This document shows positions 8,376 through 63,287 of a DNA stretch of 64,000 bases, one piece after another. Source of the stretch: an uncultured Ignavibacteria bacterium (GTDB lineage: Bacteria > Zixibacteria > MSB-5A5 > CAIYYT01); contig CAZIBI010000002.1 of assembly GCA_964537215.1 (NCBI GenBank), forward strand, positions 1-64,000, written 5' to 3'. The notes under the pieces were generated by a model. That model saw nothing but the letters and a program-made list of their open reading frames with translations. It ran no database searches and was not told the origin of the DNA. Position numbers and translations under genes: made by a program. Every line of letters starts with the position of its first letter. The first letter of the stretch is position 1.

Positions 8376-8380
8376 TCCGC

Positions 8381-10257: not shown

Positions 10258-10264
10258 CTTCCGC

Positions 10265-10573: not shown

Positions 10574-10631
10574 CCGGTTTCTTGATACAGATTATTGCTT
10601 TGCGAGAGTAATTTACTAAATTGGTCTACGT

Positions 10632-11309: not shown

Positions 11310-11311
11310 TA

Positions 11312-42878: not shown

Positions 42879-42889
42879 ATGGTAGTCTC

Positions 42890-43231: not shown

Positions 43232-43240
43232 GGCTTCCTC

Positions 43241-44233
43241 CTAATGTTCGTGACCGGCTTCGCCCTTGCCGAATTCCGCTTTGAAAATGTAACTGTCGGC
43301 TGCGACGTACTCCTCGCCCGGCTTCAATCCGTTTAGAATTTCCACGTTCTTGCCATCACTGCGGCCAAGGGTCACTGGCCGAATTTCGAAGGCATCACCT
43401 TCTTTTACAAAGACGACCGGTTTATCCTCAATAGTCTGAACTGCATCATCGGGAATGGCCATTTCGACCTGATCTTTAGCAACGGCGATTTTTGCCGTCA
43501 CGAAGAGTCCCGGCTGCCAGACGCCGCGCGGATTGGAGAGCACGACGCGAGCGGAACCAGTACGCGTGCGTTCGCCGATTATCGGGCCGACGTAGTCGAT
43601 TGTTCCTTCGACCGCTTCGTCGATACCACTAGCGGTCAGTCGAACGTGTTGCCCCGGCTTGATCAGCGAAAGGTACTTGGAATAGATGCTGATCTTGACC
43701 CAAACAGTGGAGAGGTCGGCAACGACGTAAACATCAGCATCATCACGCACAAACTCACCGAGCGTGATGTGTTTCTCGATAATGGTTCCGGACACCAGAG
43801 ACTTCACCTCATAGGGGGCAACGCTTTGGTTGCTTTGAACAACGGCGAGTACCTCTCCGGAGTCGACGCGATTTCCAAGATCCTTTCGCACCCGCTGGGC
43901 AATCCCGGCAAAGCGCGGCACAATGTGAGCGACTTTATCGGCATTCAGAACGATTTCGCCCGGCAGTTCTATCTCCTGCACGATCATGCCAGGGCCAGCT
44001 TTGGCGAGTTTGAGCCGTTGGAGTATGGGCGCGTCGTCGTGGAGCGTAATGCGATCCATAGTTGCGTGGCCCTCCTCATGTTCACCATGCTCTCCCGTCT
44101 CCTCAGCAAGTGCCTCTTGTTCCTCGTGTTCTTCCCCGGTCACCTGCGGCTCGCTTTGCAAAACAAAGACGCTTGCGACGGCAAGCACGAGGAGTGCCGC
44201 GATGGTTATTAGTACAGATTTCTTCATTCTCAT
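43241..44233 (-). CDS. czcB: RND efflux periplasmic adaptor (CzcB/CusB family) with His/Glu-rich N-terminus
   Basis: Signal peptide, HEEQEALAEETGEHGEHEEGH metal-binding-like stretch, MFP barrel/hairpin segments. Overlaps the czcC stop. Confidence 0.8.
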   Translation of the reverse strand: MRMKKSVLITIAALLVLAVASVFVLQSEPQVTGEEHEEQEALAEETGEHGEHEEGHATMDRITLHDDAPILQRLKLAKAGPGMIVQEIELPGEIVLNADKVAHIVPRFAGIAQRVRKDLGNRVDSGEVLAVVQSNQSVAPYEVKSLVSGTIIEKHITLGEFVRDDADVYVVADLSTVWVKISIYSKYLSLIKPGQHVRLTASGIDEAVEGTIDYVGPIIGERTRTGSARVVLSNPRGVWQPGLFVTAKIAVAKDQVEMAIPDDAVQTIEDKPVVFVKEGDAFEIRPVTLGRSDGKNVEILNGLKPGEEYVAADSYIFKAEFGKGEAGHEH

Positions 44234-45555
44234 CTCCTCACCGGATTCAAGCGATGACCGGTTAGCTGTTCAATGCCGATGGCGGCGTTGGCGCCCGCCA
44301 CAAGTGCGTCAATAAGTTGCCCCTGTAATTCTGAGAGGGTTCTTTGCGCGTCGAGAACGTTGATGTAGGGCTGGGAGCCGAGTCGGTACGCTAGATCAAT
44401 CTCTTCCATAGCTTGTTGCGCTGGTGGAATGACCTGCTCGCGCAGCATTGCAATCAACTCGCGTTGTGTTTGGAGTCCGACCAGTAGTTGCCGGAGTTCG
44501 CCGTCCAGTCGCTGGCGCGTAGCGGCGAGTTCGGCTTCGGACTGCGTCAAACGCTCTGTGGCTTCGGCGACACCCCCTTTGTTGCGGTTGAACAGGGGTA
44601 ACGGTACGGAGGCCCAGACGAGGAAGGAATTGCTCCCATCATCGTGCAAACGCCGATAACCGGCTCCGAGATTCAGATCAGGTTTGCCGGTAGCCTTTGA
44701 AAGCTTGATATTCGCTTCTCTGGCCCGCATTTGCGCTTGCAGAGCGGCGAGTGCCGGATTTTCGTCTACCGATAGCATTTCATTACCTGTGGGTGCACTC
44801 GCAAGCCACTCATCAAGTGAACCATCGACCCGGAAAGTAGCGTCACTTGACCCCCACAGTGCAGCCAGGGCTAAACGTGCCTGAGTCGCCGTCGCTTCGG
44901 ATGCCGCAAGGTCGATCTGGCCGAGGTTGGTTGCCGATTGAGCCCGGAGTAATTCGGCTTTCGGCACTGCGCCATCATAGACCTTTACTCGTACCGCCTC
45001 TTCTATCTTTCGCGCCAGTTCCAGACGCTGCTTCGCCAACGTGATATTATCCTGAGCTGCAAGTGCAGCAGCGAAGGAAGATGCAACCGATTGATAGAGA
45101 TCCAGTAGCCTGAGTTGTGCCGCGTACTGTTCTGCAGAGAGCTCCGCCTCCGCGACCGCTTTTCGCGCGCCACGCTTGCCGAATAGCTCAAACGGCTGTT
45201 CAACGCCTATGGTTGTTTGAGCTGGTCCGGATTCGTTCTTCCGACCGAAGTCTTCGATCTCTGTGGAAAGTTCAGGGTTGGGTCGATACCGACTCTGTTG
45301 CAGTCTCCCCGTTGCCGCGGCGATCTGCGCTCGCGCCGCTTGCATCTGCGGATTGCGCGCCACGACCAATTGCAGAGCAGAGTTGAAACTGAGAGCGGAA
45401 TCAGTTACCGAAGGAAGATTCTCTTGAACCCCATATTCCTGGTACACCGGCGGCAGGAGCGATGGCGCACTTGGGGGATTCTGGGCTAGTGCCAGTCCCG
45501 GAAGTCGGGTTAAAATAAAGACCAGATATAATGTTGTTCGAAAGTGCATCAACAA
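44230..45555 (-). CDS. czcC: TolC-like outer-membrane efflux protein (CzcC/CusC family)
   Basis: Signal peptide, two OEP repeat units with coiled-coil-rich sequence. Confidence 0.8.
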   Translation of the reverse strand: MLMHFRTTLYLVFILTRLPGLALAQNPPSAPSLLPPVYQEYGVQENLPSVTDSALSFNSALQLVVARNPQMQAARAQIAAATGRLQQSRYRPNPELSTEIEDFGRKNESGPAQTTIGVEQPFELFGKRGARKAVAEAELSAEQYAAQLRLLDLYQSVASSFAAALAAQDNITLAKQRLELARKIEEAVRVKVYDGAVPKAELLRAQSATNLGQIDLAASEATATQARLALAALWGSSDATFRVDGSLDEWLASAPTGNEMLSVDENPALAALQAQMRAREANIKLSKATGKPDLNLGAGYRRLHDDGSNSFLVWASVPLPLFNRNKGGVAEATERLTQSEAELAATRQRLDGELRQLLVGLQTQRELIAMLREQVIPPAQQAMEEIDLAYRLGSQPYINVLDAQRTLSELQGQLIDALVAGANAAIGIEQLTGHRLNPVRR

Positions 45556-48177: not shown

Positions 48178-49458
48178 CTATGCGCTCATCCACCGCTGAA
48201 TGTGGTGCTCGACCTGCGCACGTTCCTGACTGTAGCGGAGACGTGACTGTGCAACGATCTTACGTCGATTTGACGGTTGCAATATGTCGGGTGGTGGCAA
48301 CGTCTCGGCGCTGAACGGTTCAGACGTCTTCCCATTTATGGACAAGCGGAGGTAGACGTTATATTGCGGCAAGCTCTGCAGATCGACAGCGTGAAAAGTT
48401 GGATAGAATTCGCGGGCGAAAATCTCTGCATCTTCCGAACCGCAGTTGAAGGCAATCAAGGTTCCCACGTTCCCAAGAATGGCTGAAGCCAGTTGCTTTG
48501 GTAGCTGGGCAAGAAACTGATTTGCCATGCCGGCGATAACTAGCCGGTACTTCCGCGCCTCAGAGAGTATCGCAGGGAAGTCTTCCGTCGCATACGAATG
48601 TGTCTCGTCGATGTACACAAAATAGTCCGTGCGTAAGTCTTCGGCAACCGCCGCGCGCCGCAGTGCAGCCAAGTACAACTGCGTAATCATCATCGACCCC
48701 AGCAGCGCGGAGTTTTCTTCACCAATCTTCCCTTTGGCAAGATTCAGCAGGAGTATCTTTCCGGCATCCAAGACGTCCGACAGGTCAAACTTCGTCTTTG
48801 TCTGCCCGACAATGTTCCGCACGACCGGGTCAGTGAGGAACTGCCCGACCTTGTTCAGAATCGGTGAGATGGTCTCGGTGCGGAAGACTTTGGGGTACTG
48901 TTCAAATTCCACCGTCCAGAAGTGCCGAAGCATCGGGTCCTGCAAGCCGGACACAATCCGCGCCCGGAAGTGGTCGTCGACGAGGAGCCGGTTCACACCG
49001 AGCAGGGTACTGCCGCGCGCTTCCAGCAGCGCCAGAATCGCGTTGCGTAAGACGTACTCCAGCCTGGGACCCCATGAGTCCGTCCAAATCTTCTTGAAGA
49101 CCTGCACGACACCGGAAGCGACGAGATGCCGCTGTCTCGCGTCGGGATTGGACAGGACATTGAAGGCAATCGGGTACTCGCTGTCGGCGGGGTTGAAGTA
49201 GATGGTTTCGTTAATGCGCCTGGCCGGTATGTGGTCGAGGACGTGTTCGACGAGATCGCCGTGCGGGTCAATAACCGCGACACCGCGTCCAGCTTGAATG
49301 TCCTGTACGATGCAATTGAGCAGCAGCGTACTCTTGCCGGCGCCCGTTTTGCCCAGCAGGAACGTATGCCGCCGCCGGTCTTCCGGCTTGATGCCGAAGC
49401 GTCGCCGGTTACTTCGGTAATTCGTCTGCCCGAGAATCAAAAGCCCATTGTTCTGCAT
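48178..49458 (-). CDS. P-loop ATPase of the TraD/VirD4-coupling-protein or HerA/AAA_10 type
   Basis: Walker A in a typical context (HTFLLGKTGAGKSTLLLN...AVIDPHGDL), Walker B (FVYIDETH). 426 aa, in a phage/ICE-like neighbourhood. Confidence 0.55.
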   Translation of the reverse strand: MQNNGLLILGQTNYRSNRRRFGIKPEDRRRHTFLLGKTGAGKSTLLLNCIVQDIQAGRGVAVIDPHGDLVEHVLDHIPARRINETIYFNPADSEYPIAFNVLSNPDARQRHLVASGVVQVFKKIWTDSWGPRLEYVLRNAILALLEARGSTLLGVNRLLVDDHFRARIVSGLQDPMLRHFWTVEFEQYPKVFRTETISPILNKVGQFLTDPVVRNIVGQTKTKFDLSDVLDAGKILLLNLAKGKIGEENSALLGSMMITQLYLAALRRAAVAEDLRTDYFVYIDETHSYATEDFPAILSEARKYRLVIAGMANQFLAQLPKQLASAILGNVGTLIAFNCGSEDAEIFAREFYPTFHAVDLQSLPQYNVYLRLSINGKTSEPFSAETLPPPDILQPSNRRKIVAQSRLRYSQERAQVEHHIQRWMSA

Positions 49459-49638: not shown

Positions 49639-50316
49639 ATGAAGACCCAATCCAACCTGGTCACGACCATCGAGATCAAAGACCGCCAAGGCCGGGTCGT
49701 GGCGACCAAAGAGGTTGTCACGTACGCTGGCTTGCTCAATCGAGCCCACCAGGAAGGCTTGAAACAGATTGAAACGACGCTGCTCCAAGCCCCATCCGCC
49801 GCCAACGAAATGACCGCGATTTCTATGGCAAAAGTGGTGACAGAAAAAGGGGTGTTCACCGAGGTCGGCGATGCCAACCCCGGCAACGTCAATGCGACCA
49901 TCGTTCCCCACATCATTCGCATGGCGTTCACCAGAGCCAAGGCACGCGCCCTACGCGATGCCGTCAACGTCGGCGTCATCGCGCTCGAAGAGCTCACCGA
50001 CGACTACGCCAACGGCGCTGTGGATAGCGGAAACAGCGCGAAGACGAATGGTGCGACAGCGTCAGCAGCGGACGATGCCGGAAACGGCTCGACTGGCAAC
50101 GGCAGTAGTCAAGAGCCGGCCAGCGACCCGATGACGGAAAACCAGCGTCGCTACTTGTTCCGGCTGCTTGCCGAGCGCAGCATTACCGGCGATGAAGCCC
50201 ACGGTTTCTTGAAGCGGGCATTCGGCGTCGAGTCCCTGAAGGACGCGTCCAAAGCAGATGCCAGCACCTTGATCGACCACATCCTCAATGTGGGACTGGA
50301 GGGGGTGCCGTTCTGA
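49639..50316 (+). CDS. Putative Rad52/Sak-family single-strand annealing protein
   Basis: Central TEVGDANPGN...RMAFTRAKARALRDAVNVG resembles the Rad52 N-terminal signature (EDVGYG...[26 protein letters not shown]). Gly/Ser-rich linker plus small C-terminal domain. Strong AAAGGAGGT SD. Coupled to the exonuclease gene. Confidence 0.45.
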   Translation: MKTQSNLVTTIEIKDRQGRVVATKEVVTYAGLLNRAHQEGLKQIETTLLQAPSAANEMTAISMAKVVTEKGVFTEVGDANPGNVNATIVPHIIRMAFTRAKARALRDAVNVGVIALEELTDDYANGAVDSGNSAKTNGATASAADDAGNGSTGNGSSQEPASDPMTENQRRYLFRLLAERSITGDEAHGFLKRAFGVESLKDASKADASTLIDHILNVGLEGVPF

Positions 50317-51077
50317 TGCGCGACCACATTTCCGTCTCGCAGATCAATTTGTATCTGTCCTGCCCGCTCAAGTACAAGTACCGCTACATCGACGAACTTC
50401 CGGTGCCAAGCAAAGCCGCCGAACTTGCATTCGGCAGTGCCGTGCATTCGTCCATTGAGTGGTGGCATAAAGAGCGGCAAGCCGGGTACATGCACGAATG
50501 GGAAGACGTCGCCGTGATCTTCGCCGCCGACATGAACGCGCAGGCGGTTGATGACTTGCGCTTCAAGAATGGCGACGACCTTGACTCGCTGCTTGCGCTG
50601 GGCAGGCAGCTCATCGCCATCTACATTCAAGAGTACAAAGGGGCAGCACCGAAAGCCGTTGAGCAGAATTTCCGGGTACCGCTCGTCGATCTGGAAACCG
50701 GCGAGCGGCTCGATATGCCGCTCGAAGGCTACTTCGATCTGTTGGAAGAAGGTGACACCGTTGTTGAGCTGAAGACGGCAGCAAAAGTGTACGACACGAC
50801 AACCTTAGTCCAGCACTTGCAGCTGACCGCGTATTCGTACGCGTTCAGCTTCCTCAAGAAGCGCGACGCCAATCTCCGGATTGACATTCTCACCAAGACG
50901 AAGAAGCCGCGGCTGCACAGCTTCGAGATTACACGCACGCAGAACGACCACGTCCGCTTCGTCCACCTGGCCAAGCGAGTGATCCAAGGGATCCAAGCGG
51001 GGCACTTCTACCCCAACGCAGGTTGGCAGTGCCAAGGCTGCGAGTACTATGAAACGTGCCAGAAATGGCGTGGATAA
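50316..51077 (+). CDS. PD-(D/E)XK exonuclease, Cas4/RecB-like with C-terminal Cys cluster
   Basis: N-terminal ISVSQINLYLSCPLKYKYRY, D..ExK core (GYFDLLEEGDTVVELKT), C-terminal C-x-QCQGC-x5-C Fe-S-like cluster. Start overlaps the upstream stop. Confidence 0.7.
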   Translation: MRDHISVSQINLYLSCPLKYKYRYIDELPVPSKAAELAFGSAVHSSIEWWHKERQAGYMHEWEDVAVIFAADMNAQAVDDLRFKNGDDLDSLLALGRQLIAIYIQEYKGAAPKAVEQNFRVPLVDLETGERLDMPLEGYFDLLEEGDTVVELKTAAKVYDTTTLVQHLQLTAYSYAFSFLKKRDANLRIDILTKTKKPRLHSFEITRTQNDHVRFVHLAKRVIQGIQAGHFYPNAGWQCQGCEYYETCQKWRG

Positions 51078-51093
51078 GGAAGGAGAGTTCACT

Positions 51094-52158
51094 ATGTCCA
51101 TGATACTTATCGACGCCCACAAACAGTGGGTGAAACGAGCTCCCGATGAACGATTCACATCGTTGGATGCAATTCTGGAATTCACCGGAAACCGGAAACG
51201 CAATGCGCTGGAAGAAACGCACAGCTTGCGCAACCTCCGTCTCCACGCAACACACGGCGGCGGGATGTTCCTAAACGGGCACGTTCCGCACGCGGCGTTC
51301 ACGAACTGGTCTTTCTCGCAATTGTGCCAGTCGGTGAAGGCGCCTGCCGGATATCTTCGGTCGCTGTCTGCCGGCATGGCGGTGCAGTGCCTGGAATACG
51401 GCATGGCGAGAAACGGTGGGGAAGCGAAACTCTTGCTCAGGCGGAACGAGTCGCCGGACTCGGACGAGAGCAACTTTGGCAACGCCGTCTCCGCCTTCAC
51501 AAGTCCGACGTATGGCCGCATATGGGACTACGAGGTCATTTCCGAGCTTCTGGAGGCGATTAGAGGCTCGAACTGGCACCCGCCTGACTCGAAGACCGGA
51601 TCGGCCGGTCTCTACGCCTCAGATCGCGATATGTTCGTCTTTCTGATCAATGATGAACGTCTAATTGAGATCGGCAACGCTCGACTCGGCAAGGGGTTCT
51701 TCCTCTGGAATTCGGAAACCGGTTCGGCGACGTTTGGCCTGACGGTATTTCTATTCAACTTCGTCTGCGCGAATCACATTGTCTGGGGCGCTGAAGAAAT
51801 TCGAGAGCTCAAGATTGTGCACCGGCACCACGCGCTATCGCGATTCTACAGCGAGGCAATTCCGGTATTGAATCGGTTTGTCGAGAACCGCAATCTCGAT
51901 GAACGAATCCGGGAGACGGTGGGTCGAGCAATGGATGATCGTCTCGGAACCACCCTTGAAGAGATTAGTACGTCTTTGAAAGATCTTCCGTTCACGCGCA
52001 ACGAACTTGCAGCGGGCTGGAATACTGGCCTTGCCGAAGGAGAGGATGTTACGAGCCGCTGGGGCTTGACGCAAGGGTTGTCGGCCTACGCCCGTGCATT
52101 GCCATTTATTGACAAGCGAGTGAGCTTAGAGCGCCGAACCGGCGCGTTGCTAATCTGA
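51094..52158 (+). CDS. Hypothetical phage/plasmid-associated protein (DUF932-like)
   Basis: Size and context as for DUF932-type proteins of mobile elements. ATG with AGGAAGGAGAG SD. Low-confidence family call. Confidence 0.35.
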   Translation: MSMILIDAHKQWVKRAPDERFTSLDAILEFTGNRKRNALEETHSLRNLRLHATHGGGMFLNGHVPHAAFTNWSFSQLCQSVKAPAGYLRSLSAGMAVQCLEYGMARNGGEAKLLLRRNESPDSDESNFGNAVSAFTSPTYGRIWDYEVISELLEAIRGSNWHPPDSKTGSAGLYASDRDMFVFLINDERLIEIGNARLGKGFFLWNSETGSATFGLTVFLFNFVCANHIVWGAEEIRELKIVHRHHALSRFYSEAIPVLNRFVENRNLDERIRETVGRAMDDRLGTTLEEISTSLKDLPFTRNELAAGWNTGLAEGEDVTSRWGLTQGLSAYARALPFIDKRVSLERRTGALLI

Positions 52159-52252: not shown

Positions 52253-53467
52253 CTAGCTCAGTCTTGGGCCGCAGCAGAGGTTGAACTGCTGAAGGCTTCC
52301 GCACGGGCAGAGTCCGCTCTTAGAGAAGTGACTCACGCAGGCTAGAAACTCTGGTATTTCATCTGTGCGCATATTGAGACAGGTAGGCCAGGCGGAAAAC
52401 TTCTTGCGGTCACCCGGATTAATGCATTTGCGCCAGAGCGACGCTGTTGCGAGATCAGGCAGAGCGGAGAGTATTTCGTTAACGTTGTTCAGCTCCGGAG
52501 ACGACTTCGGAGTTTTGGACTTCAGCATCCAATTCGCAATTCGACTGAGATCGTCCTTGAGGTCCTTACCTGATAGGAATGTTTGATCAGCCGTCATGCA
52601 GCATGGCGCCGTCAAAGCATGGAACTTGTCGTTTGAGCAAAAGACCATACAGAAGGGCAAGTAGAATAAGTATTCTTTATCGACTTGGTTAGTGGCTCGG
52701 GTACCCACCAAGTTGCGAGCTAAGCCGAGGCGGAACGACAATTCGACTTTCGCGCAGTGGTAGGCAAACGGTGCGAATTCCCCAATTGTTCCTAGCCCTG
52801 AGAGTCTGTACCGTTCGACGATTGGTGTCCGATCAGGAGGATCAACTAGCAAGACCGATAGCATGAGAGATAGTGCGTCTGACTGATCATCCAGGTTGAG
52901 AAACAGCTTCTCAACACGCTGGACGAGCTCTTGAAAGCTCTTTGCGTCCGACAGTTGTTCAGCAGCTTGCGAGTAGAGTGTCCTCACATATTCGAGATCA
53001 AAGGTGCGCGAGTGTGCCCGCCACTCATCGGCAAATGCGATGTCGCTGGGGCCGAAATCGCCGCGCTGCCACCGCATTACATCTTGCTCTTGACGCGACT
53101 CCTCAAACACAATCCCAGAGCGACCGTCCTTGAGCGCGTGCCGATGTGCCCGATCGAGGACAATTTGATAGTTCGTCGGAACATACTCACCTGCTAGTTC
53201 GAGCGCGATTAGCTCGTGATGTAGCTGATTGTAGAAGCCTCGGGACTGAATCGCTTTCTTGGCAAGCCGCATGGCTTCACTCGGCTGCACAAGGCCTCCC
53301 GTATTCAACTTGGTGAGATCGCCGATTATTTCGAAGAAGAGAATGGGTGTCAGGTTTACAGTGTACAGCCGTGCGAGAAGTGAAATCTCGTGCTCATCTA
53401 GCGCCTGAAGCACCGACTTGTCGATGATGAGCACTGGCGCACTTAGTCCGTCATGTACTACCTTCAT
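52253..53467 (-). CDS. Hypothetical protein with C-terminal SEC-C metal-binding motif
   Basis: 404 aa. C-terminus CPCGSLQQFNLCCGP matches the SEC-C motif. The N-terminus (VLIIDKSVLQALDE...) is unassigned. Overlaps the upstream gene by 4 nt. Confidence 0.5.
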   Translation of the reverse strand: MKVVHDGLSAPVLIIDKSVLQALDEHEISLLARLYTVNLTPILFFEIIGDLTKLNTGGLVQPSEAMRLAKKAIQSRGFYNQLHHELIALELAGEYVPTNYQIVLDRAHRHALKDGRSGIVFEESRQEQDVMRWQRGDFGPSDIAFADEWRAHSRTFDLEYVRTLYSQAAEQLSDAKSFQELVQRVEKLFLNLDDQSDALSLMLSVLLVDPPDRTPIVERYRLSGLGTIGEFAPFAYHCAKVELSFRLGLARNLVGTRATNQVDKEYLFYLPFCMVFCSNDKFHALTAPCCMTADQTFLSGKDLKDDLSRIANWMLKSKTPKSSPELNNVNEILSALPDLATASLWRKCINPGDRKKFSAWPTCLNMRTDEIPEFLACVSHFSKSGLCPCGSLQQFNLCCGPRLS

Positions 53468-54450
53468 GATTCAGTCGAATCATCTGGCCCACGGAGCAAC
53501 TTTGGATTGCGATAGTCAATGGCATCGTGATCTTCGGCGGGGTGGGGTGCGAACTGACTCGGTACAACGCCTTGATCAAAGAGGTCTAACGAGTGTTTTA
53601 CGATTCTCATTGCAGCTTCGTCAGGAATCTCCTTCGGAATTGTGCCTTCGGCCGCGGCACGTTGTAACTCTCTCAGTGCAGCAACGCCTTCGCTGAGGAC
53701 TTTGTTCACCCGTTCTGCTCGTTCAATGTCGCGGTAGTGCCAGCGGAAGAGCGCGTTCAGTACACACTCTACGGTCTTCGCCAGTCCCTCTCCAAGTTTG
53801 AATTCAATTCGAATCGGCGATCCCGTTTCAATGCGGAGAATTTCCACTGGATGAAGGTTCTCCTGAGGTCTGAGGGAAGCAAGCTCTCCAGCGAGTTCGC
53901 TTACCAATTCCAGAATCTTAGAGAGTTGTTGAGCTTGAGTAAGTCCAATTCGGAATTGCAGAACGTCAATCGAAACTACGGTCGGAATATCTTCAGGATC
54001 GTCATCCTGGAGTCCGAGTAAGCTCTGCAAGCTTTCCTCCACCGCTGTCATTCGTAGCCAGTTCTCGTAAACCTCCCCCCGAAACTCGCTTGCCTGATCT
54101 CGAGTCTGGTGATTGATGTGATGCACCGCCACAGCAGGTACAATTGTACTACTCAATAATGCATTGAAGTTCAACGCTTCAAGAATTTCTCTAGCTGCCG
54201 GATTCTGCGAGATGGCGTCAATGCCACGAACCAGTTCGGCATGCAACAGCATGACCGTCGGATTGGGCAGAACATTTCCGTTGTGGTTTGGATAGTCCCG
54301 GTTTTCAAAAAACAACTCTCGTGCTGTCGGAAATCGCTCTCGAATCCATTTGATGCCAGCAACAATGTCCTTGGGATACAAAACCCCTCCTGCTTTAGAT
54401 GTAGTCAGCTCAACTAATCTCGCGCTTCTAGCGCTTGCGTGAAACGGCAC
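53464..54450 (-). CDS. Hypothetical protein, upstream partner of the SEC-C protein
   Basis: No recognisable motifs. The ORF track start is GTG; a TTG at about 54381 with AGGAGG SD may be the true start. Confidence 0.4.
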   Translation of the reverse strand: MPFHASARSARLVELTTSKAGGVLYPKDIVAGIKWIRERFPTARELFFENRDYPNHNGNVLPNPTVMLLHAELVRGIDAISQNPAAREILEALNFNALLSSTIVPAVAVHHINHQTRDQASEFRGEVYENWLRMTAVEESLQSLLGLQDDDPEDIPTVVSIDVLQFRIGLTQAQQLSKILELVSELAGELASLRPQENLHPVEILRIETGSPIRIEFKLGEGLAKTVECVLNALFRWHYRDIERAERVNKVLSEGVAALRELQRAAAEGTIPKEIPDEAAMRIVKHSLDLFDQGVVPSQFAPHPAEDHDAIDYRNPKLLRGPDDSTES

Positions 54451-54690: not shown

Positions 54691-56922
54691 ATGCAACTAA
54701 GCGATAACGAAAAACGGGATATAATCAAGTATATTGAGGCCGGAAAGCCTCTGCCCGACAAGTATCGCTTCCTGCTTTTCGAGGAAAAGCAGGAAGTCGA
54801 GCTCGTTTGGAATGGCAAAACCAGCGAAGTCACAAACGTTGTATTGCCATTTCAGATTATCGAGCAAGTAGACGAACCACGGAGTGAAAAGGACGTAAAG
54901 CTCCAACTTGGCCTGTTTGATCTGGATTCGCGGGGACGGCAGCTCAAAGGGTGGACAAACAAACTCATTTGGGGAGACAACAAACTGATCCTCTCCAGTC
55001 TCAAGAACGGTCCGATGCGCCAAGAGATTGAAGAGCAGGGCGGCATCAAGCTCATCTACATTGACCCACCGTTCGATGTCGGGGCAGACTTCTCGATGGA
55101 CATTGAGATCGGCGAGGACACACTTACCAAGCGTCCGAATGTCCTTGAAGAACTTGCCTATCGGGATACTTGGGGCAAGGGTGCGGATTCATTTATCGCC
55201 ATGATCTATGAGCGCCTCGTGCTGATGCGAGACTTGCTGGCAGAAGATGGAAGCATTTATGTGCATTGTGACTGGAGGCTAATCGCATACATGCGGCTCG
55301 TCCTCGACGAAGTATTTTCGACAGATCGCTTCCAAAACATTATTACGTGGAGACGTGGTCCGCAAAAATCGCACGGCCTTGGATATGGTCACAATGCAGA
55401 CTACATCATCTATTTCACCAAATCGAATCACTTCATTTGGAATAAGCCTGTTGGCGACCTTTCGGAAGAGTATCTCAAGTCATTCAAACAGGACGCAAAG
55501 GGGAAGTATGTCACGACTCCGCTGCATAGCGGACGACCGGCGCTTCACGTACCGGCTTGGAGGGGTGCCAAGCCGCCACAAGGACGCGGCTGGGCTTATA
55601 AGATTGAAACACTTGAACAATTCGAACGCGATGGCCTGATCGAGTGGAGCAAGACAGGGACTCCGAGACTCAAGCGTTACCTCGACGACATTGAGGGTGC
55701 CGCAGTTCAAGAAATCTGGTCCGATATCAAACCCCTGCTCGCAAAGAGTGGTGAGCACTTAGCGTATCCGACTCAAAAACCTGAGGAGTTACTCGACCGC
55801 ATTATTGAAGCCTCATCTAATGAAAACGATGTTATCGCCGATTTCTTCTGTGGTTCCGGTACTACGCTAGCAGTCGCGGAAAGGCTCGGGCGTAAGTGGA
55901 TAGGTACGGATTTAGGAAAATTCGCAATTCATACTTCAAGAAAGCGAATGATCGCGGTTCAGCGGCAGCGAAAGACTGCCGGCGAATCATTCCGTGCATT
56001 CGAAATCCTCAACCTTGGGAAATACGAACGACAGCACTATATCGGGGTCAACCCGAATCTTCGGGATCAAGAGAAACAGAGGCAAATCGCGAAGAAGGAA
56101 AAGGACTTCATCGCGTTGATTCTTTCAGCGTACCGGGCCGAAGCCGTCGATGGATTCAAGACTTTCCATGGCAAAAAATCATCTCGCCTTGTCGCAATCG
56201 GTCCAATCAACTTGCCCGTATCGCGCCTCTTCGCCGAGGCAGTAATTGCCGAGTGCCTGGAGAAGAAAATCACCAAGGTAGATATTCTCGCTTTCGAGTT
56301 TGAAATGGGGTTGTTTCCCAACATTCAAGAAGAGGCTAAGCGAAAGGGCGTCGATCTTGCACTAAAGTACATACCGCGCGAAGTCTTCGACAAGCGCGCC
56401 ATCGAAAAGAACCAAGTTGTATTCCATGACGTTAGCTTCATCGAATTGAAGCCTATCGTAAAGAAGGGTCTCGTCTCCGTCGAACTTACCGATTTTTCGG
56501 TATTCTACAACCAAGACTCGCTAAAGGACGTCGAGGAGAATCTCAAGGCCGGTGGAAAAAAACTGATCGTCCAGAACGGCCAAATCATTAAGGTCGCGAA
56601 AGATAAGAATGAGGTCGTCACTCGTGAAGTGCTCACGAAGAAATGGACTGATTGGATAGACTATTGGGCCGTGGACTTCGCCTTCGAGAGTAAGAAAGAA
56701 ACGATCCGCGTAAAGAGCGAAAAGGCCGAAGGGTACGACGAAGTCTGGACCGGCAGCTATGTCTTTGAGAACGAGTGGCAGTCGTTCCGAACGAAGAAAG
56801 AACGTAGTCTCGAACTGACCAGTGTCGCTCGCGAACTCCCTAAGGGGAAGCACAAGATCGCCGTCAAAGTCGTTGACATCTTCGGCAACGACACGATGAA
56901 GGTCATCGAGGTCACTGTCTAG
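54691..56922 (+). CDS. mod: Type III restriction-modification methyltransferase (Mod), beta-class N6A/N4C amino-MTase
   Basis: Motif IV DPPF (LIYIDPPFDVG) precedes motif I FxGxG (DFFCGSGTT). 743 aa. 12 nt upstream of res. Confidence 0.85.
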   Translation: MQLSDNEKRDIIKYIEAGKPLPDKYRFLLFEEKQEVELVWNGKTSEVTNVVLPFQIIEQVDEPRSEKDVKLQLGLFDLDSRGRQLKGWTNKLIWGDNKLILSSLKNGPMRQEIEEQGGIKLIYIDPPFDVGADFSMDIEIGEDTLTKRPNVLEELAYRDTWGKGADSFIAMIYERLVLMRDLLAEDGSIYVHCDWRLIAYMRLVLDEVFSTDRFQNIITWRRGPQKSHGLGYGHNADYIIYFTKSNHFIWNKPVGDLSEEYLKSFKQDAKGKYVTTPLHSGRPALHVPAWRGAKPPQGRGWAYKIETLEQFERDGLIEWSKTGTPRLKRYLDDIEGAAVQEIWSDIKPLLAKSGEHLAYPTQKPEELLDRIIEASSNENDVIADFFCGSGTTLAVAERLGRKWIGTDLGKFAIHTSRKRMIAVQRQRKTAGESFRAFEILNLGKYERQHYIGVNPNLRDQEKQRQIAKKEKDFIALILSAYRAEAVDGFKTFHGKKSSRLVAIGPINLPVSRLFAEAVIAECLEKKITKVDILAFEFEMGLFPNIQEEAKRKGVDLALKYIPREVFDKRAIEKNQVVFHDVSFIELKPIVKKGLVSVELTDFSVFYNQDSLKDVEENLKAGGKKLIVQNGQIIKVAKDKNEVVTREVLTKKWTDWIDYWAVDFAFESKKETIRVKSEKAEGYDEVWTGSYVFENEWQSFRTKKERSLELTSVARELPKGKHKIAVKVVDIFGNDTMKVIEVTV

Positions 56923-56934
56923 GGGAAAACACGT

Positions 56935-59631
56935 ATGGCGCTACATCCCAATTTCCCGAAATCCCCACACGCAATCCTTGATCCCGCGATCCGCTGGTTC
57001 CCAGCGGACGAGTCCTTGCGCGAACAGGGATACGACAAATTGCTCCCGCCTCTCGTCGCCGAACTGCGCAAGCAGGTGCGAGACTGGCGGCTTTCTGGGT
57101 ATCAAGGCGCAAGTGAAACCAGCCGAACTCTTCTGAACTGGTGGTTCTTGCGGGAACACCCTGTGTCAAGCGCGAAGGGTGAAACCTTTCTGTTCCAATA
57201 CTACTTCGCCCAACGGGAAGCTGTTGAGACGATCATTTGGCTCTATGAAGTAGCGCAGGCACGAGACAAGTACGACCTCATCCGGCATGATAGCTCTGGT
57301 GCTGTTTCGGCGGGCATGTTCGACGAGACTTGGACTCGCTACGTTGTTAAGATGGCGACGGGTTCGGGCAAGACGAAAGTCTTAAGTCTGATCCTGACCT
57401 GGTGCTATTTCCATAAGCTCTACGAAACAGGCTCCGAACTAGCTCGCAATTTCCTCGTCATCGCGCCGAACATCATCGTCTTAGATCGCCTACGTGCGGA
57501 CTTCGACGGCTTGAAGATCTTCTTCGAGGATCCGGTGCTCCCGGACAACGGCGTCGACGGCCACAATTGGCGCGACGACTTCCAACTGACATTGCACATC
57601 CAAGACGAGATCGGCACGATTCGCAAGACCGGCAACATCTTCTTGACGAACATTCACCGCGTCTACCAAGGCGCGATCGAAGCATCCAGCTTCGATGACG
57701 AAGATACTGCCGACTACTTTCTTGGCAAGCGCCCTGTGGGCGCGACCAATCAGTCGAAACTCGACCTTGGCGACATTGTTCGCAACATCGACGAGCTCGT
57801 CATCTTAAATGACGAAGCCCACCACATCCATGACCCGCGTTTAGCATGGTTCAAAGCAATCGAAGACATCCACAACCGTCTGCTCATGAAAGGCGACAAG
57901 CTCAGCCTTCAGGTCGACGTCACAGCGACGCCGAAGCACAACAACGGCTCGATCTTCGTGCAGACGGTGAGCGACTATCCGCTTGTCGAAGCGATCCACC
58001 AGGACGTCGTGAAGCACCCGGTCCTGCCAGATTCAGCGAGCCGGGCGAAGCTGCAGGAGCACAAAAGCTCCAGCTTCACCGAGAAGTATAAGGACTACAT
58101 CCACCTCGGCTACCTGGAGTGGAAGAAAGCATACGATGAGCACTTGAAGCTCCAGAAGAAGGCAGTGCTCTTCCTCATGACCGATGACACCAAGAATTGC
58201 GACGAAGTCGCGAAGTACCTTGAATCTACCTACCAAGAACTCCAGGGCGCCGTCCTGGTCATTCATACGAAGGACAATGGCGAAATCTCGGAAAGCGTCA
58301 CCGGCAAGAAAGAAGAAGAGCTCAAGTTACTCCGCGAGGCGGCGAACTCCATCGACCACTTGGGCAACCCGTACAAGGCCATCGTGTCCGTCCTGATGCT
58401 CAAGGAAGGCTGGGACGTGCGGAACGTCACCACGATCGTCGGCTTACGCGCGTACAGCGCCAAGAGCAATATCCTTCCGGAACAGACGCTCGGCCGCGGC
58501 CTGCGGCGCATGTACCACGATCCCGACCTTCCGGAACTCGTCAGCGTCGTCGGTACGGATGCCTTCATGGATTTCGTGGAATCGATCAAGAGCGAAGGCG
58601 TCGAGCTCGAACGACGGCAAATGGGTGAAGGCTCAGGGCCGAAGACGCCGATCGTTGTTGAAGTCGACAAAGAGAATCGGAAGAAGAATATTGAACAGCT
58701 CGATATCGACATCCCCGTTCTAACTCCGCGCATTTATCGAGAGTACAAGAATCTCTCAGAGCTTGCCGTTGATCGGTTCGGCATCAAGAAGATCCCGCTC
58801 AAAGAATTTACCGAGGAACAGAAGAGGCAGATCGTCTTCCGTGATATCACGAGCGGCGAGGTAACCCATACGACAGAACTCGATACCGACTTTGTCCCAA
58901 ACTACCAGAGCGTCATCGGCTACTTCACGCAAGTCATCATGAAAGACTTGCGCCTCGTCAGCGGGTACGACGTCCTCTACGGCAAAGTGAAGGAATTCAT
59001 TCAGCAACACTTGTTCGTCAAGAGAATTGAGCTGGACAACTTAAATTCGCTCCGGAACCTCTCCGAAATCGAAGCGTCACGCACGGTCGTCGAGACGTTC
59101 AAGAAGGAGATCAACTCTCTCACAGTCTTGGATCGAGGCGAAGCTGAAATCCGTGACTACATCAAAATTAGTAAGAGCCGCCCCTTCGTTGTGAAGGAGC
59201 AGGGGTACATTATTCCCAAGAAGAGTGTGTTCAACAAGATTGTTGGGGACAGCCACTTCGAACTTGAGTTCGCCAATTTCCTCGAGGGTTGCGACGACAT
59301 CATTTCCTACGCAAAGAATTATTTCGCCGTTCACTTTCGGATAGACTACAGGAACGCCGACGGGAGCATTTCCGACTACTACCCGGACTTCATTGTCAAG
59401 GTCGCGCCGAAGCAGTATTTCGTTGTTGAGACAAAGGGCAGAGAAGATTTGGACGATGTATTGAAAATCGAACGTCTTCAACAATGGTGTGACGACGTGA
59501 ATGCGACGCAGCGAGAGATCAAGTACCAGATGCTGTATGTGAAGCAAGAGCAATGGGAGTCTTCTCCTAACCGTCCAAGGTCGTTTAAGAATGCAATTCA
59601 ATTGTTCCAACAAAAGGCACGTTTAGTATGA
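56935..59631 (+). CDS. res: Type III restriction endonuclease Res subunit (SF2 helicase + C-terminal PD-(D/E)XK)
   Basis: Helicase motif I (MATGSGKTKV), motif II DEAH (LNDEAHH), C-terminal nuclease-like D...VETKG. Confidence 0.85.
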   Translation: MALHPNFPKSPHAILDPAIRWFPADESLREQGYDKLLPPLVAELRKQVRDWRLSGYQGASETSRTLLNWWFLREHPVSSAKGETFLFQYYFAQREAVETIIWLYEVAQARDKYDLIRHDSSGAVSAGMFDETWTRYVVKMATGSGKTKVLSLILTWCYFHKLYETGSELARNFLVIAPNIIVLDRLRADFDGLKIFFEDPVLPDNGVDGHNWRDDFQLTLHIQDEIGTIRKTGNIFLTNIHRVYQGAIEASSFDDEDTADYFLGKRPVGATNQSKLDLGDIVRNIDELVILNDEAHHIHDPRLAWFKAIEDIHNRLLMKGDKLSLQVDVTATPKHNNGSIFVQTVSDYPLVEAIHQDVVKHPVLPDSASRAKLQEHKSSSFTEKYKDYIHLGYLEWKKAYDEHLKLQKKAVLFLMTDDTKNCDEVAKYLESTYQELQGAVLVIHTKDNGEISESVTGKKEEELKLLREAANSIDHLGNPYKAIVSVLMLKEGWDVRNVTTIVGLRAYSAKSNILPEQTLGRGLRRMYHDPDLPELVSVVGTDAFMDFVESIKSEGVELERRQMGEGSGPKTPIVVEVDKENRKKNIEQLDIDIPVLTPRIYREYKNLSELAVDRFGIKKIPLKEFTEEQKRQIVFRDITSGEVTHTTELDTDFVPNYQSVIGYFTQVIMKDLRLVSGYDVLYGKVKEFIQQHLFVKRIELDNLNSLRNLSEIEASRTVVETFKKEINSLTVLDRGEAEIRDYIKISKSRPFVVKEQGYIIPKKSVFNKIVGDSHFELEFANFLEGCDDIISYAKNYFAVHFRIDYRNADGSISDYYPDFIVKVAPKQYFVVETKGREDLDDVLKIERLQQWCDDVNATQREIKYQMLYVKQEQWESSPNRPRSFKNAIQLFQQKARLV

Positions 59632-62309
59632 GCACTACTGGACTCAGTTTTAAGAGAGTCGACCTGCATGTGCATTCTACAGCCTCAGCTGACTACAGAA
59701 ATAAGGCAGCCACTCCGAAACAAATTGTAGAAGCTGCACTAGCAAAGGGTTTGAGTGCAATTGCTGTAACTGATCATCAGACGGGCAACGGTATTGACGA
59801 AATTATTGCAGCTGCAGTAGGTACGGAACTAGCTGTTTTCCCAGGCGTAGAGATTACTGCGGCAGGAGGAAAAAACGGCATTCATGTTCTCTGCATTTTT
59901 AACAAAGATAAGAACACTACTCACGTTAATCAGTTCCTAAACACTCTAAAGATCTACGACCGGGAGGGAAAAGTTACCCCGTGTACTGAGTCAACGGTTG
60001 GACAGATTGCGGAACAGCTTGATATATATGATAGCGATGCAATCATGATACTCGCGCACTGTCATTCCTCTAAGGGCGTTTTAGGCGACATTACCGGCGT
60101 CCAGCGATCCGCAATTTTTGAGAAGAAGAGCCGTTGCCTCATCGGGGCCGAAACAAGTGAAGGTAACTTCACTGATCCCAAAAGGATTGAAGAACGAACT
60201 CGAGTTATCGACATCCTCGACGGGTCCGATGCCAACTACCACAACGCAAAGTTAGGAGTGATTCAGAGTTCAGATGCGCATGAGCCAGCCGAGATTGGCT
60301 CAGCGTTTTCTTGGTTTAAAGTTGATGAACCAATCACTATAGAAGACTTACGCCAATGCCTAATTGACCGCGAAACGCGGATACGTCAACCTTATGAATT
60401 CAAGCCAGGTCTATTTCCTTCTATTCGATCGATTCGAATTGAGGGTGGCTTTCTTGACGGGGCGCACCTGAACTTCAATAATGGCTTAAACAGCATACTG
60501 GGAGGCAAGGGCACGGGAAAATCGCTTGTAGTTGAGTTGTTGCGTTTCGGCCTGGATCAAGGCCCCGCGGAGCCGCCTCTCGCGAACGATCACGAACAGA
60601 AACTTCTCAATTGTCTGAAGACATACGGAAAGGTAGGCATCACAATTTCAGATGAAACTGGGAAAGAGTATTTGATCACACGAGAGTACAAACCCAATGA
60701 TGGCAATCCGACCACGGTTACCGACATTCAAGACAAGACACCGAAGACTTTTTCCATTCGGGACGTCTTCCCGTGCATTTTCCTAAGCCAGAATGAAGCA
60801 ATCCAAATTGCTCAAGATGTGACTGGACGTGCGCAACGCCAATTCATTGATCGGTTTTTTGACTTCAACCGAATCCAGCAAGAAATTCTCAGAACAAATC
60901 GAGAACTCCAGCAGGCTGACAAAAATTTTGCTGAGTGTGTGCGAGCTAAATTCGAGTCTGAGCTCGTCGACAAGCAGTTGGCTGGAATTCGCGAAGAGAT
61001 TGAGAAGATTGATCGACAAGTAAAGAACGAAGCGTTTGACGAGTACGCAAAGAAAGAGCGAGTTGGAAGAGCTATTGACACACAGCACAGTTTCATCAAA
61101 CAACTTAGTCGGCACCTGTCGGAATTCAAAGGCACCTTAACTGACTTGCATGTACCTCTAGACGATGACGACACTACAGCCAAGGATCCGATCGTTCGAA
61201 GGTCGAGAGATGTTTCGCAAGAGTCTCTTCGAAAACTGATAGAACAACTGAATGCAAGTAGCGCCGCTCTCGCACAAGCAGAACAAGGTATCAGCAAGGA
61301 GAACATTGAATACCGCAACTCCGTCGCCCCCGTCAAACAACGTTACGAAGAGCTTGTCAAACAAGCCGGTGGAAATCAGGTAACTCTGAACGAGCGAAGA
61401 AAGAAGCTAATCCTTCAGAGGACGCAATTAGACAGTAAGATGAGCGAGCTTCAGAATAAACATGCACAGCTCAGGACGATTGCTGACAACAGAAAAGCCC
61501 ATCTTGCCCAGTTGGACGCATTGCACACGGAATACTCGACTTTGCGACGCCAGCGTTGCGAGCATTTTTCGAGCAACTCCAACAGAGCACTGGATGTGAG
61601 TATTATGGAAGCAAAGGACACCGCCGACTTCCAAGCAAACCTAATGCGATTGAAAAAAGGGTCCTGGCTTCGCGAAGATGAGATTAGTGCAATCACAAAA
61701 GGAATAATTCCAAAGGATTTTGTTCGCGCAATTCTAGGCTATGCATGGAAACATCGTAACGCTCCCGAGGCCGTCAAAGAGGTTGCTGACAAGACTGGAC
61801 TTGCGGTAGATAGAATCGAGAAGCTCTTCAGTCACTTTTTGGACGAGTGCACATACGAGGAGCTGCTTGCGCTGGAGTATACTTCTACTCCTGACGACGT
61901 ACCCCAAATCAAGTATCGCGTCGATGGTCAGTACAAACTCTTGAGTGAACTTTCAGTGGGCCAGAAATCCGTCGCGCTTCTAATCATGGCATTGAGCGAC
62001 GGGCGAAGTCCCATAATCATCGATCAGCCGGAAGACTCTCTCGACCTTCGCTCAATTTGGGACGACGTTTGCACTAAAGTTCGAACCACGAAGGAGCAGA
62101 GGCAGTTCATCTTCTCTACTCACAATTCGTCTGTTGCCATCGCATCCGATTCAGACTGTTTTTCTATTCTCGTAGCAGATGGATCCCACGGCAAAGTAGC
62201 GTATTCAGGCTCGATTAATGCTCCTGATATTCGAAAGGAGGTCCTACTCCATCTAGAAGGCGGAAAGGACACCTACAATCACAAGAGGCGAAAGTACAAT
62301 ATTGCATAG
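59628..62309 (+). CDS. PHP-domain phosphoesterase fused to SMC/RecN-like ABC ATPase with coiled coil (Ppl-like)
   Basis: N-terminal PHP (VDLHVHSTASADY, HxH...H...E...H...D/H). Walker A (GGKGTGKS), long coiled-coil region, ABC signature and Walker B (LSVGQKSVALL...IIIDQPEDSLD), H-loop (STHN). ATGA overlap with the res stop. Confidence 0.7.
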   Translation: MSTTGLSFKRVDLHVHSTASADYRNKAATPKQIVEAALAKGLSAIAVTDHQTGNGIDEIIAAAVGTELAVFPGVEITAAGGKNGIHVLCIFNKDKNTTHVNQFLNTLKIYDREGKVTPCTESTVGQIAEQLDIYDSDAIMILAHCHSSKGVLGDITGVQRSAIFEKKSRCLIGAETSEGNFTDPKRIEERTRVIDILDGSDANYHNAKLGVIQSSDAHEPAEIGSAFSWFKVDEPITIEDLRQCLIDRETRIRQPYEFKPGLFPSIRSIRIEGGFLDGAHLNFNNGLNSILGGKGTGKSLVVELLRFGLDQGPAEPPLANDHEQKLLNCLKTYGKVGITISDETGKEYLITREYKPNDGNPTTVTDIQDKTPKTFSIRDVFPCIFLSQNEAIQIAQDVTGRAQRQFIDRFFDFNRIQQEILRTNRELQQADKNFAECVRAKFESELVDKQLAGIREEIEKIDRQVKNEAFDEYAKKERVGRAIDTQHSFIKQLSRHLSEFKGTLTDLHVPLDDDDTTAKDPIVRRSRDVSQESLRKLIEQLNASSAALAQAEQGISKENIEYRNSVAPVKQRYEELVKQAGGNQVTLNERRKKLILQRTQLDSKMSELQNKHAQLRTIADNRKAHLAQLDALHTEYSTLRRQRCEHFSSNSNRALDVSIMEAKDTADFQANLMRLKKGSWLREDEISAITKGIIPKDFVRAILGYAWKHRNAPEAVKEVADKTGLAVDRIEKLFSHFLDECTYEELLALEYTSTPDDVPQIKYRVDGQYKLLSELSVGQKSVALLIMALSDGRSPIIIDQPEDSLDLRSIWDDVCTKVRTTKEQRQFIFSTHNSSVAIASDSDCFSILVADGSHGKVAYSGSINAPDIRKEVLLHLEGGKDTYNHKRRKYNIA

Positions 62310-62390: not shown

Positions 62391-63287
62391 TTGGTAGACC
62401 TTACAGATCTAACTTATGTAATCAAAGCGGACTCACTGCGCGTTGGCGGTTCGAACAAACCAATATTTGTCCACAAACGTCATCGTTGGGTGCTCCCAAT
62501 CATTCACTTTACACAGACGTACGGCATTCTTAACGAACCATGCACTATTGTCAACATTGACGGCCATAGAGACTGGGCATTCTACGGTGGGGTTACAAAT
62601 GTCGAAATGTTTGATGATATTCGGCAATACGGAGTGACTCACGAAAGGCTGAAGGCTTATCTAGCCGATGATAGAGACGACGATGCGCAGTGGCTCGTGT
62701 CAGCGGTCGACTTCAATTTAGTCGATAGCGTAATCCTTATTGGCGGGCAGCTTGAAGCAGAAATGCGAACTGTACCATGGGATGAACGGAAAGTGATTGG
62801 AGACATTGAGGACTCAGTTCCATTCGTCGCTCAAGACGTCCGGGGTGTCTTTCACGAAGTGCATCCGCTTCACACTTACACTGTTGCGGAAACAGAGGGG
62901 GGATATGAACATAGCGTACTGCTAAAGTCAATGGCGGGTGTTGAGCAACTCAGATGGTGGAAATGTTACGAAATTGTTTCGGAAATCGCAGCAGACCAAC
63001 TGTTTCTTACAGTCGACCTAGATTTTTTTGCTGCAGATCCGTTCGGAGAGACTCGGCTGTGGGACCTTCGCGACCTGGAGGTGTTTCTCGCTCTTAATAT
63101 TAGCCCGCCGAGCTTTGGAAAGGTCGTTACCACTGGAGATCTGATCAGATTGATTGCCAAGAAGTCTGTAGCCATTTCCGTCGCCACAGAAGTCGATCAT
63201 TGCGGAGGAATTGAGAATGCGAAAATCGCATATCAATGGGCGAGGGAATACTTTGGCATGGACGTCTCGGGCGCACTGTTTATTTAA
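62391..63287 (+). CDS. Hypothetical protein (Asp/His-rich motifs IVNIDGHRD, TVDLDFF)
   Basis: 298 aa. TTG start with AGGAAAAGAG upstream. No confident family assignment. Confidence 0.4.
   Translation: MVDLTDLTYVIKADSLRVGGSNKPIFVHKRHRWVLPIIHFTQTYGILNEPCTIVNIDGHRDWAFYGGVTNVEMFDDIRQYGVTHERLKAYLADDRDDDAQWLVSAVDFNLVDSVILIGGQLEAEMRTVPWDERKVIGDIEDSVPFVAQDVRGVFHEVHPLHTYTVAETEGGYEHSVLLKSMAGVEQLRWWKCYEIVSEIAADQLFLTVDLDFFAADPFGETRLWDLRDLEVFLALNISPPSFGKVVTTGDLIRLIAKKSVAISVATEVDHCGGIENAKIAYQWAREYFGMDVSGALFI

Follow-up and report, generated by a model that had tools for sequence, protein, structure and literature searches.

The gene considered here, a member of the trlF family, lies near the end of a 64,000-nucleotide (nt) stretch of DNA (the window; positions 1 to 64,000 of contig CAZIBI010000002.1, from an uncultured Ignavibacteria bacterium). 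It encodes an 893-amino-acid (aa) protein in which a PHP phosphoesterase domain is joined to a Rad50/SMC-class ATP-binding cassette (ABC) ATPase, the latter split by a coiled coil of about 240 residues. The gene follows mod and res, which encode a type III restriction-modification (R-M) system, and its start codon overlaps the res stop. The protein is a TrlF-family member and not an orthologue of the anti-phage protein Ppl, to which an earlier note on this DNA, made without database searches, had likened it.

The trlF gene and its product

The gene and the features that define its product are as follows.

59628..62309, + strand: trlF-family gene, 893 aa, PHP nuclease domain fused to an ABC ATPase, Ppl-like
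59628..59631, + strand: ATGA start/stop overlap of res and trlF, a translational-coupling geometry
59614..59617, + strand: weak Shine-Dalgarno-like AAGG within res, 10 nt 5' of the trlF ATG (sequence inspection)
59628..60407, + strand: PHP phosphoesterase domain, aa 1-260, ligands H14, H16, D49, H50, E75, H86, H144, D216 and H218
60501..60524, + strand: Walker A (P-loop) GGKGTGKS, G292-S299 (family alignment)
60867..61577, + strand: coiled-coil insert, aa 414-650, from AlphaFold2 (AF2) helices, apex near 505-521, no CxxC zinc hook
61950..62036, + strand: ABC signature LSVGQKS (aa 775-781) and Walker B/D-loop IIIDQPED (aa 796-803)
62121-62123, + strand: H-loop H832 (family alignment)

The open reading frame (ORF) is present exactly as the earlier note had claimed, and so is the overlap with res. 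The junction reads gtATGAgc, with the ATG at 59628-59630 and the res TGA at 59629-59631, an overlap of 4 nt. The AAGG upstream may serve as the Shine-Dalgarno sequence of trlF. The three motifs that had been quoted, GGKGTGKS, LSVGQKS and IIIDQPEDSLD (the last being the Walker B/D-loop, aa 796-806), all occur and fall on invariant columns. When 31 full-length homologues are aligned, the invariant residues include eight PHP ligands (H16, D49, H50, E75, H86, H144, D216 and H218), G292, K294, G295, G297, K298 and S299 of Walker A, and Q388. The signature residues S776, G778, Q779 and K780, Walker B D799-D803 and H832 are invariant as well. K298 and S299 are present in 60/60 sequences, and the remaining PHP ligand, H14, is kept in 56/60. 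In sequence and layout the window protein thus has what is expected of a Ppl-like PHP-ABC nuclease: nine of nine PHP ligands and an ATPase, split by a coiled coil, in which the Walker A and B motifs, the Q-loop, the signature and the H-loop are all present.

Domain searches and structure prediction agree with this assignment, as the earlier note had read it from the motifs. Three Pfam models match above their cut-offs: PHP (aa 12-93; 37.1 bits versus 26.4), AAA_23 (275-465; 38.3 versus 27) and AAA_21 (587-836; 32.3 versus 27). PHP_C (20.8 versus 21.3) and SMC_N (30.3 versus 40) fall slightly under theirs, so that of the models named beforehand PHP and AAA_23 pass and SMC_N does not. The AlphaFold model (pLDDT 86.7, pTM 0.70) consists of a PHP barrel (1-260), an ABC N-lobe, the coiled-coil insert (414-650), a helical module (666-752) and a C-lobe. 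The insert is formed by helices 414-465, 468-505, 521-580, 584-613 and 615-650. Its only cysteines are C437 and C644, and a zinc hook was considered and rejected, the coiled coil having no CxxC. Foldseek relates the ATPase part to Rad50, JetC, SMC, RecF and LmuB, with Rad50 and SbcC as the best matches, and the PHP domain to BAD_1165 and RNase AM. PDB relatives of the PHP domain are 3e0f, 7ug9 and 9etk. No structure of Ppl or TrlF was found in the PDB by sequence, profile or Foldseek searches.

The lower GC content that had been ascribed to this segment is real but modest, 0.472 for trlF versus a window mean of 0.524. At third codon positions (GC3) the values are 0.48 for trlF, 0.59 for mod and 0.70 for res. 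The low-GC tract begins in the 3' end of res (~58.8-59.1 kb) and extends to the end of the window. A clean island boundary at the trlF start was therefore rejected.

Relationship to Ppl

The window protein scores 420.5 bits on the NCBIfam model for TrlF family AAA-like ATPases (TrlF_fam_ATP, NF045780; cut-off 350), and the match runs from end to end (aa 5-891 on positions 2-944 of 944), which makes it a member of that family. On the equivalog model for the anti-phage protein Ppl (NF042955) it reaches 190.1 bits versus a cut-off of 1000, and on the model of the Spaf_1101 family 228 versus 475; it belongs to neither. The PADLOC Ppl model (PDLC02208) is matched significantly and over its full length (E 1.4e-42; aa 7-884 on 6-886 of 894), with 144 bits versus 770 for a true Ppl. 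The resemblance to Ppl thus extends along the whole protein but falls short of orthology.

A bona fide Ppl was found in the viral contig L079, where the protein reaches 1152.9 bits on the NCBIfam Ppl model. Because it also passes the TrlF model (499 bits), Ppl is a subfamily nested within the TrlF family. Compared with this protein, that of the window is 26% identical in the PHP and Walker A region and 34% identical in the C-lobe; the coiled coils cannot be aligned. The catalytic residues are the same in both, at the nine PHP ligands (HHDHEHHDH) and in all ABC motifs. In a rough neighbour-joining tree the window protein belongs to a large environmental clade that is separate from Ppl and from the TrlFs of IncC plasmids. 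Its closest relatives are 99%, 86% and 63% identical, followed by proteins at 53% or less. With E<=1e-30 as the limit, the family comprises about 2,631 clusters (50% identity) out of 1.84 billion representatives.

In literature searches no paper on 'TrlF' came up, the matches being unrelated acronyms. Ppl is said to have been reported by Gao et al. in 2020 as a single-gene anti-phage system. In a review (PMC12904381) it is described as a single-stranded DNA 3'-5' exonuclease that senses 3'-OH overhangs, is activated by 3'-OH ends from phage homing endonucleases and is inhibited by nucleoside triphosphates (NTPs) at its PHP and NTPase domains. The primary reference for this mechanism, as cited in PMC13434339, is Xu et al., Mol Cell 2026, doi 10.1016/j.molcel.2025.11.011. 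Ppl restricts T7, and Bas63 gp130 counters it (PMC11482910).

The R-M operon, its setting and its relatives

The two genes upstream of trlF are adjacent and co-directional.

54691..56922, + strand: mod, type III DNA methyltransferase, 743 aa, first operon gene (Pfam N6_N4_Mtase 5.1e-41; PADLOC MTase_III 9.5e-113)
56935..59631, + strand: res, type III restriction subunit, 898 aa, helicase-like ATPase with a C-terminal PD-(D/E)XK endonuclease

Together they constitute a type III R-M system, with an N6/N4 methyltransferase beside a superfamily 2 helicase-like/PD-(D/E)XK protein. Res matches Pfam ResIII (1.2e-14) and RE_endonuc (1.6e-5) and PADLOC REase_III (1.6e-18), and its close relatives carry the JGI name 'type III restriction enzyme'. 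The 12-nt spacing of mod and res and the ATGA overlap bear out the mod-res-PHP/ATPase operon that had been proposed, co-transcription being deduced from this geometry. Hundreds of Res relatives at 77-83% identity are known, mainly from Patescibacteria (the candidate phyla radiation, CPR). The host of the window has genes for an RND pump and its outer-membrane factor (39684-45555). Taken together, the Patescibacteria-like Res, a host with an RND pump and the GC3 contrast between res, mod and trlF suggest a recent cross-phylum transfer and an operon of mosaic make-up.

Comparison with the closest relatives shows exchange of alleles within a stable architecture. The ATGA overlap of res and trlF is kept in L003 (99%), L085 (86%) and L099, despite different flanking codons. 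Nucleotide identity to L085 is about 93% in res, about 68% in the PHP-coding third of trlF (59628-60407, corresponding to L085 4331-5110) and about 88% in the ATPase part. Identity to L003 is about 89% in res and changes to about 99% near 59,350, within that gene. The mosaic points to allele exchange by recombination with retention of the operon architecture; the PHP and res segments have been swapped independently, with breakpoints inside the operon. In Nei-Gojobori comparisons with L085 the PHP segment has a pS of 0.87, which is saturated, and a dN of 0.15, and dN/dS is 0.03-0.08 in the rest of trlF and 0.02-0.07 in res. Since dN/dS is at most 0.08 in every estimable segment of trlF, the gene is under purifying selection and functional. 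Positive selection on the PHP segment was rejected: replacement of the allele by recombination fits saturated synonymous sites and a low dN better. At the protein level Res is 95% and Mod 75% identical to the L085 counterparts. The PHP domain is also 75% identical, which beside the 95% of Res speaks mildly against a tightly co-adapted Res-PHP interface.

Further genes surround the operon on both sides.

48178-49458, - strand: TrwB-like coupling protein
50316-51077: PDDEXK_1/Cas4-like nuclease
51049-52158: DUF932 gene
52253-53467 and 53464-54450, - strand: overlapping unannotated genes, 404 aa and 328 aa, just upstream of mod
62391..63287, + strand: orphan ORF, 298 aa, TTG start, co-directional with and 81 nt 3' of trlF, with the same low GC3

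The order along the window is RND-efflux genes (39.7-45.6 kb), a dip in GC (46-47 kb), the coupling protein, the PDDEXK_1 gene, the DUF932 gene, the two minus-strand genes and the operon. The 404-aa and 328-aa proteins have no family match in Pfam, PADLOC or NCBIfam; the former ends in a SEC-C-like motif, CPCGSLQQFNLCCGP. L003 continues beyond the point where the window ends, and there (5670-13197) it carries genes for a SEC-C protein and a large serine recombinase, a helix-turn-helix gene and two Replic_Relax genes. A 53%-identical homologue, P0004, lies in a comparable element beside AbiEii, a PLD-SNF2 helicase and an Eco57I/MmeI-type methylase. Such surroundings, with coupling protein, recombinase and Replic_Relax genes, mark the operon as defence cargo carried by an integrative mobilisable element. 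The window contains no tRNA gene.

The 298-aa ORF has no match in Pfam, PADLOC or NCBIfam, and a homologue search among 5.8 billion proteins returned a single, identical one. It is kept in L003 and may be a fourth gene of the operon. As a conserved partner it was rejected, because a DUF2321 gene takes its place in L086.

The neighbours of TrlF genes were surveyed at 68 metagenome and 9 viral loci retrieved with a family alignment, with crude gene calling; about 45 of these are independent loci with upstream sequence. Mod and Res relatives of the window type occur near TrlF at only one of them, L002, where the order is res-mod-trlF and TrlF, Res and Mod are 47%, 56% and 54% identical to those of the window. 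The idea of an obligate type III partner for TrlF was rejected on this count. R-M genes in general were found co-directional and within two genes upstream in at least 7 of the 45 loci, and anywhere in the fetched flanks in at least about 13; both counts come from seed-based searches and are lower bounds. Pfam assigned the 78 upstream and 62 downstream neighbours to about 70 families each, and at the 45 independent loci to 71 families, with no dominant partner. These include N6_Mtase, TaqI_C, Eco57I, MmeI, Type ISP, BrxB, GmrSD, Mrr, Ymh, Schlafen helicase and integrases, and BREX and AbiE genes are also frequent. The upstream neighbour is co-directional in 38 of 45 loci, with a gap of more than 100 nt in most. 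Solitary, apparently monocistronic copies are found on Gordonia and Cupriavidus plasmids. In a P2-like Yersinia phage another solitary copy has gpA and gpQ as its neighbours, an interval that is a known hotspot for defence cargo. Family members thus occur alone; the window copy overlaps res. Solo copies, the lack of a dominant neighbour and the long upstream gaps all argue for autonomy of TrlF.

A survey from the R-M side, covering 11 independent lineages of the window-type Res family, gives another view of the linkage. A TrlF-family gene is adjacent in 3 of the 11, namely the window clade (100%), L002 (47%) and L093/94 (22% identity). In the last of these a 931-aa protein begins 1 nt after res; its full-length alignment to the window protein has an E of 2e-45, and the TrlF model gives it 473 bits. 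The recurrent adjacency to type III res that the earlier note had proposed as a check is therefore seen from the side of this Res family, and hardly at all (one locus in about 45) from that of TrlF. The other lineages have different accessory genes or none. An OLD-like ATPase-TOPRIM gene lies between mod and res in L100-105; after res, L106 has a second methylase and a HerA-like ATPase, L107 a PIF1-like helicase and DUF2779, L110 a T5orf172 gene, and L092 a DUF2254 gene. L095, L108 and L109 have no accessory gene. Small genes occur between mod and res in about half of the lineages; small unknown genes, DUF488 and KilA-N are among those found at this place. This type III R-M family acts like a scaffold, and its variable, tightly packed accessory slot repeatedly captures ABC-ATPase nucleases. 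A PDDEXK_1 gene is often found near type III R-M relatives of the window res.

TrlF genes are also embedded in type I R-M operons of IncC plasmids. The gene order is hsdR-TrlF-'RNA-binding' protein-hsdS-AAA-hsdM in pNDM-KN, with a 4-nt overlap at the TrlF start, and hsdM-hsdS-TrlF-'RNA-binding' protein-hsdR in pCFR-0b27, with an 8-nt overlap. The RptR paper describes a pair of 'RNA-binding protein + AAA-like ATPase' embedded between hsdS and hsdR (PMC12255303). IncC TrlF is always followed by the 'RNA-binding domain' protein (L088 10601-11764; L089 10658-11878), which matches PADLOC models of pAgo-associated domains (AlbA_2/Schlafen-like) and has no counterpart in the window operon. The three TrlF-family copies that are embedded most tightly in R-M operons, all with intact ABC motifs, depart from the PHP ligand string HHDHEHHDH of the window protein and true Ppl.

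L088 7977-10619: HHNHEHHDK
L089 7965-10631: QNDHEHHDE
L093 8684-11479: QHDHEQNDR

These proteins may be partner-dependent pseudo-nucleases; alternatively, the substitutions may reflect alignment error at 22-25% identity. Overall, the linkage of TrlF to R-M systems is neither obligate nor specific to type III, and it is recurrent and tight. Given the rarity of the family (~2,600 clusters among 1.84 billion), it goes far beyond chance.

Roles proposed for TrlF

The favoured explanation, to which we give a probability of roughly 0.6, is that the window TrlF works on DNA ends as an autonomous nuclease of the Ppl-like PHP type, equipped with an ABC ATPase and co-expressed with a type III R-M system as a layered defence cassette. 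By analogy with E. coli Ppl, the protein is most likely an exonuclease that binds the ends or overhangs of DNA and is controlled by nucleotides, its coiled coil probably serving in dimerisation and DNA engagement. From this analogy we infer its nuclease activity and polarity, end sensing, NTP regulation and anti-phage role. The gene is the last large one of a mod-res-trlF operon carried as cargo by an integrative mobile element. Its translation would depend, through the ATGA overlap, on ribosomes completing res, so that TrlF would be made together with the restriction enzyme. The protein would be able to act alone, as many solitary family members must, and co-expression with the R-M system would broaden protection. 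In addition, TrlF may make use of the DNA ends that restriction produces, and a functional dependence on the R-M system is possible.

Several observations weigh against this explanation. The protein shares no more than 26-34% identity with the characterised Ppl, and its coiled coil, likely the part that senses substrate, is the one that cannot be aligned. The tight coupling to R-M genes recurs and hints at more than co-location: the type I operons of IncC plasmids have overlaps of 4 and 8 nt, and a single type III family has TrlF genes of three lineages. In some of the embedded relatives the substituted PHP ligands may signify dependence on a partner. Type III enzymes generally leave short 5' overhangs, whereas Ppl is reported to sense 3' overhangs, and synergy through restriction-made ends is for this reason speculative. 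Finally, scans for promoters and terminators performed no better than shuffles, and geometry is thus the only ground for co-transcription.

The proposal of the earlier note, a composite restriction plus nuclease system, is partly supported: the tight coupling recurs, but an obligate link is not established, most family members having no R-M neighbour. We regard an obligate composite, with TrlF as a third subunit or arm dedicated to the R-M system, as unlikely. In one variant TrlF would processively destroy DNA from the breaks made by Res and so block repair of restricted phage DNA. In the other it would be a guard silenced by the R-M complex and freed when a phage anti-restriction protein disables the latter. 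PrrC and RloC, as R-M-linked ABC-ATPase nucleases, set a precedent for such guard logic. The coupling itself speaks for a composite: the ATGA is kept while both flanks diverge, the IncC copies are overlapped inside type I operons beside hsdR on one plasmid and hsdS on another, and a rare family appears in three of 11 lineages of one type III R-M family. A sibling operon holds an OLD-type ABC-TOPRIM nuclease between mod and res, and the degenerate PHP ligands of L088, L089 and L093 suggest reliance on a partner. The PHP active site of the window protein, however, is complete. Partner subunits and R-M types vary (HsdR, HsdS, Res, Mod, type IIG/ISP), and this variety speaks against a single conserved interface between the proteins. 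The same slot in sibling R-M operons is filled by unrelated genes or by nothing, as expected for an insertion hotspot. Recombination breakpoints inside the operon, with Res at 95% and PHP at only 75%, tell against tight co-adaptation, and R-M genes lie within two genes upstream in only 7 of 45 loci, many members being clearly solitary.

A broader proposal is that R-M operons of several types (type III here and in the Patescibacteria-like relatives, type I in IncC) recruit interchangeable ABC-ATPase nucleases as a coupled second arm. TrlF with its PHP domain, or OLD with its TOPRIM domain, would then finish off DNA from restriction ends or fire upon neutralisation of the R-M system, and some embedded TrlF copies without PHP catalysis may rely on a partner nuclease. 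This generalisation is offered as a doubtful one.

The least likely of the three readings, and an improbable one, is a non-immune role, namely SbcCD-like processing of DNA ends or hairpins for the mobile element (in replication, integration or transfer) or in competition between elements, with trlF merely the neighbour of an R-M addiction module: the fold is closest to Rad50/SbcC-type and JetC-type ABC ATPases, plasmid homologues bear the NCBI GO term 'double-strand break repair', Wadjet/JetC-like systems target plasmids rather than phages, and the host element is integrative with relaxase-like and coupling-protein genes, but the nested subfamily Ppl is experimentally anti-phage, defence genes rather than repair genes dominate the neighbourhoods, TrlF occupies defence-cargo positions in a P2-like phage and inside R-M operons, and trlF is not part of the element backbone, related elements carrying other cargo.

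The mechanism of Ppl is a recent result, and the much larger TrlF family to which it belongs is uncharacterised, although members occur on IncC resistance plasmids of clinical importance. One type III R-M core that occurs with TrlF, with OLD-like genes, with other ATPase or nuclease modules or with nothing is a compact natural test-bed for asking whether genes overlapped with R-M genes act independently, in synergy with restriction or as guards. This pattern of a variable slot is more interesting, and more open to testing, than the trlF gene alone. A positive outcome of such a test would extend 'guilt-by-embedding' to type III systems and explain why ABC-ATPase nucleases land in R-M operons.

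Among known systems, Ppl has the same length and layout, an N-terminal PHP domain followed by an ABC ATPase with a coiled-coil insert, and is likewise found on mobile elements. The window protein differs from it in belonging to a separate environmental clade and in scoring below the Ppl equivalog threshold, and Ppl is treated as stand-alone whereas window trlF has the geometry of translational coupling to a type III res. The IncC TrlFs share with it a start that overlaps the stop of an R-M gene. They are only about 25% identical to the window protein, lie in type I rather than type III operons, have substituted PHP ligands and are followed by the AlbA_2/Schlafen-like gene.

Like the window protein, SbcCD and Mre11-Rad50 combine a metal-dependent phosphoesterase nuclease with an ABC head of the Rad50 class that is interrupted by an antiparallel coiled coil. 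In the window protein this nuclease is a PHP domain in cis and not a separate calcineurin-type Mre11/SbcD, and the coiled coil, with about 240 aa altogether, is short. Lacking a CxxC in aa 414-650 and a Metallophos match in Pfam, the protein falls outside the SbcCD group. OLD and GajA of Gabija are, like it, single polypeptides with an ABC ATPase and a nuclease and have a role in defence, and in a sibling type III operon an OLD-like gene takes a comparable place, with mod and res on either side. The nuclease of the window protein is the N-terminal PHP domain; no TOPRIM match was obtained with Pfam, PADLOC or NCBIfam, so that it is not an OLD protein, and its PADLOC GajA matches are weak and confined to the P-loop. 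PrrC and RloC have been listed among the ABC-ATPase defences (bioRxiv 10.1101/2024.01.29.577857). The window protein has no anticodon-nuclease domain by Pfam, PADLOC or NCBIfam and does not belong with them; its predicted target is DNA, not tRNA, and the R-M partners of its family are of several types. What it shares with PrrC and RloC is the arrangement, an ABC-ATPase-headed nuclease embedded in or appended to an R-M operon.

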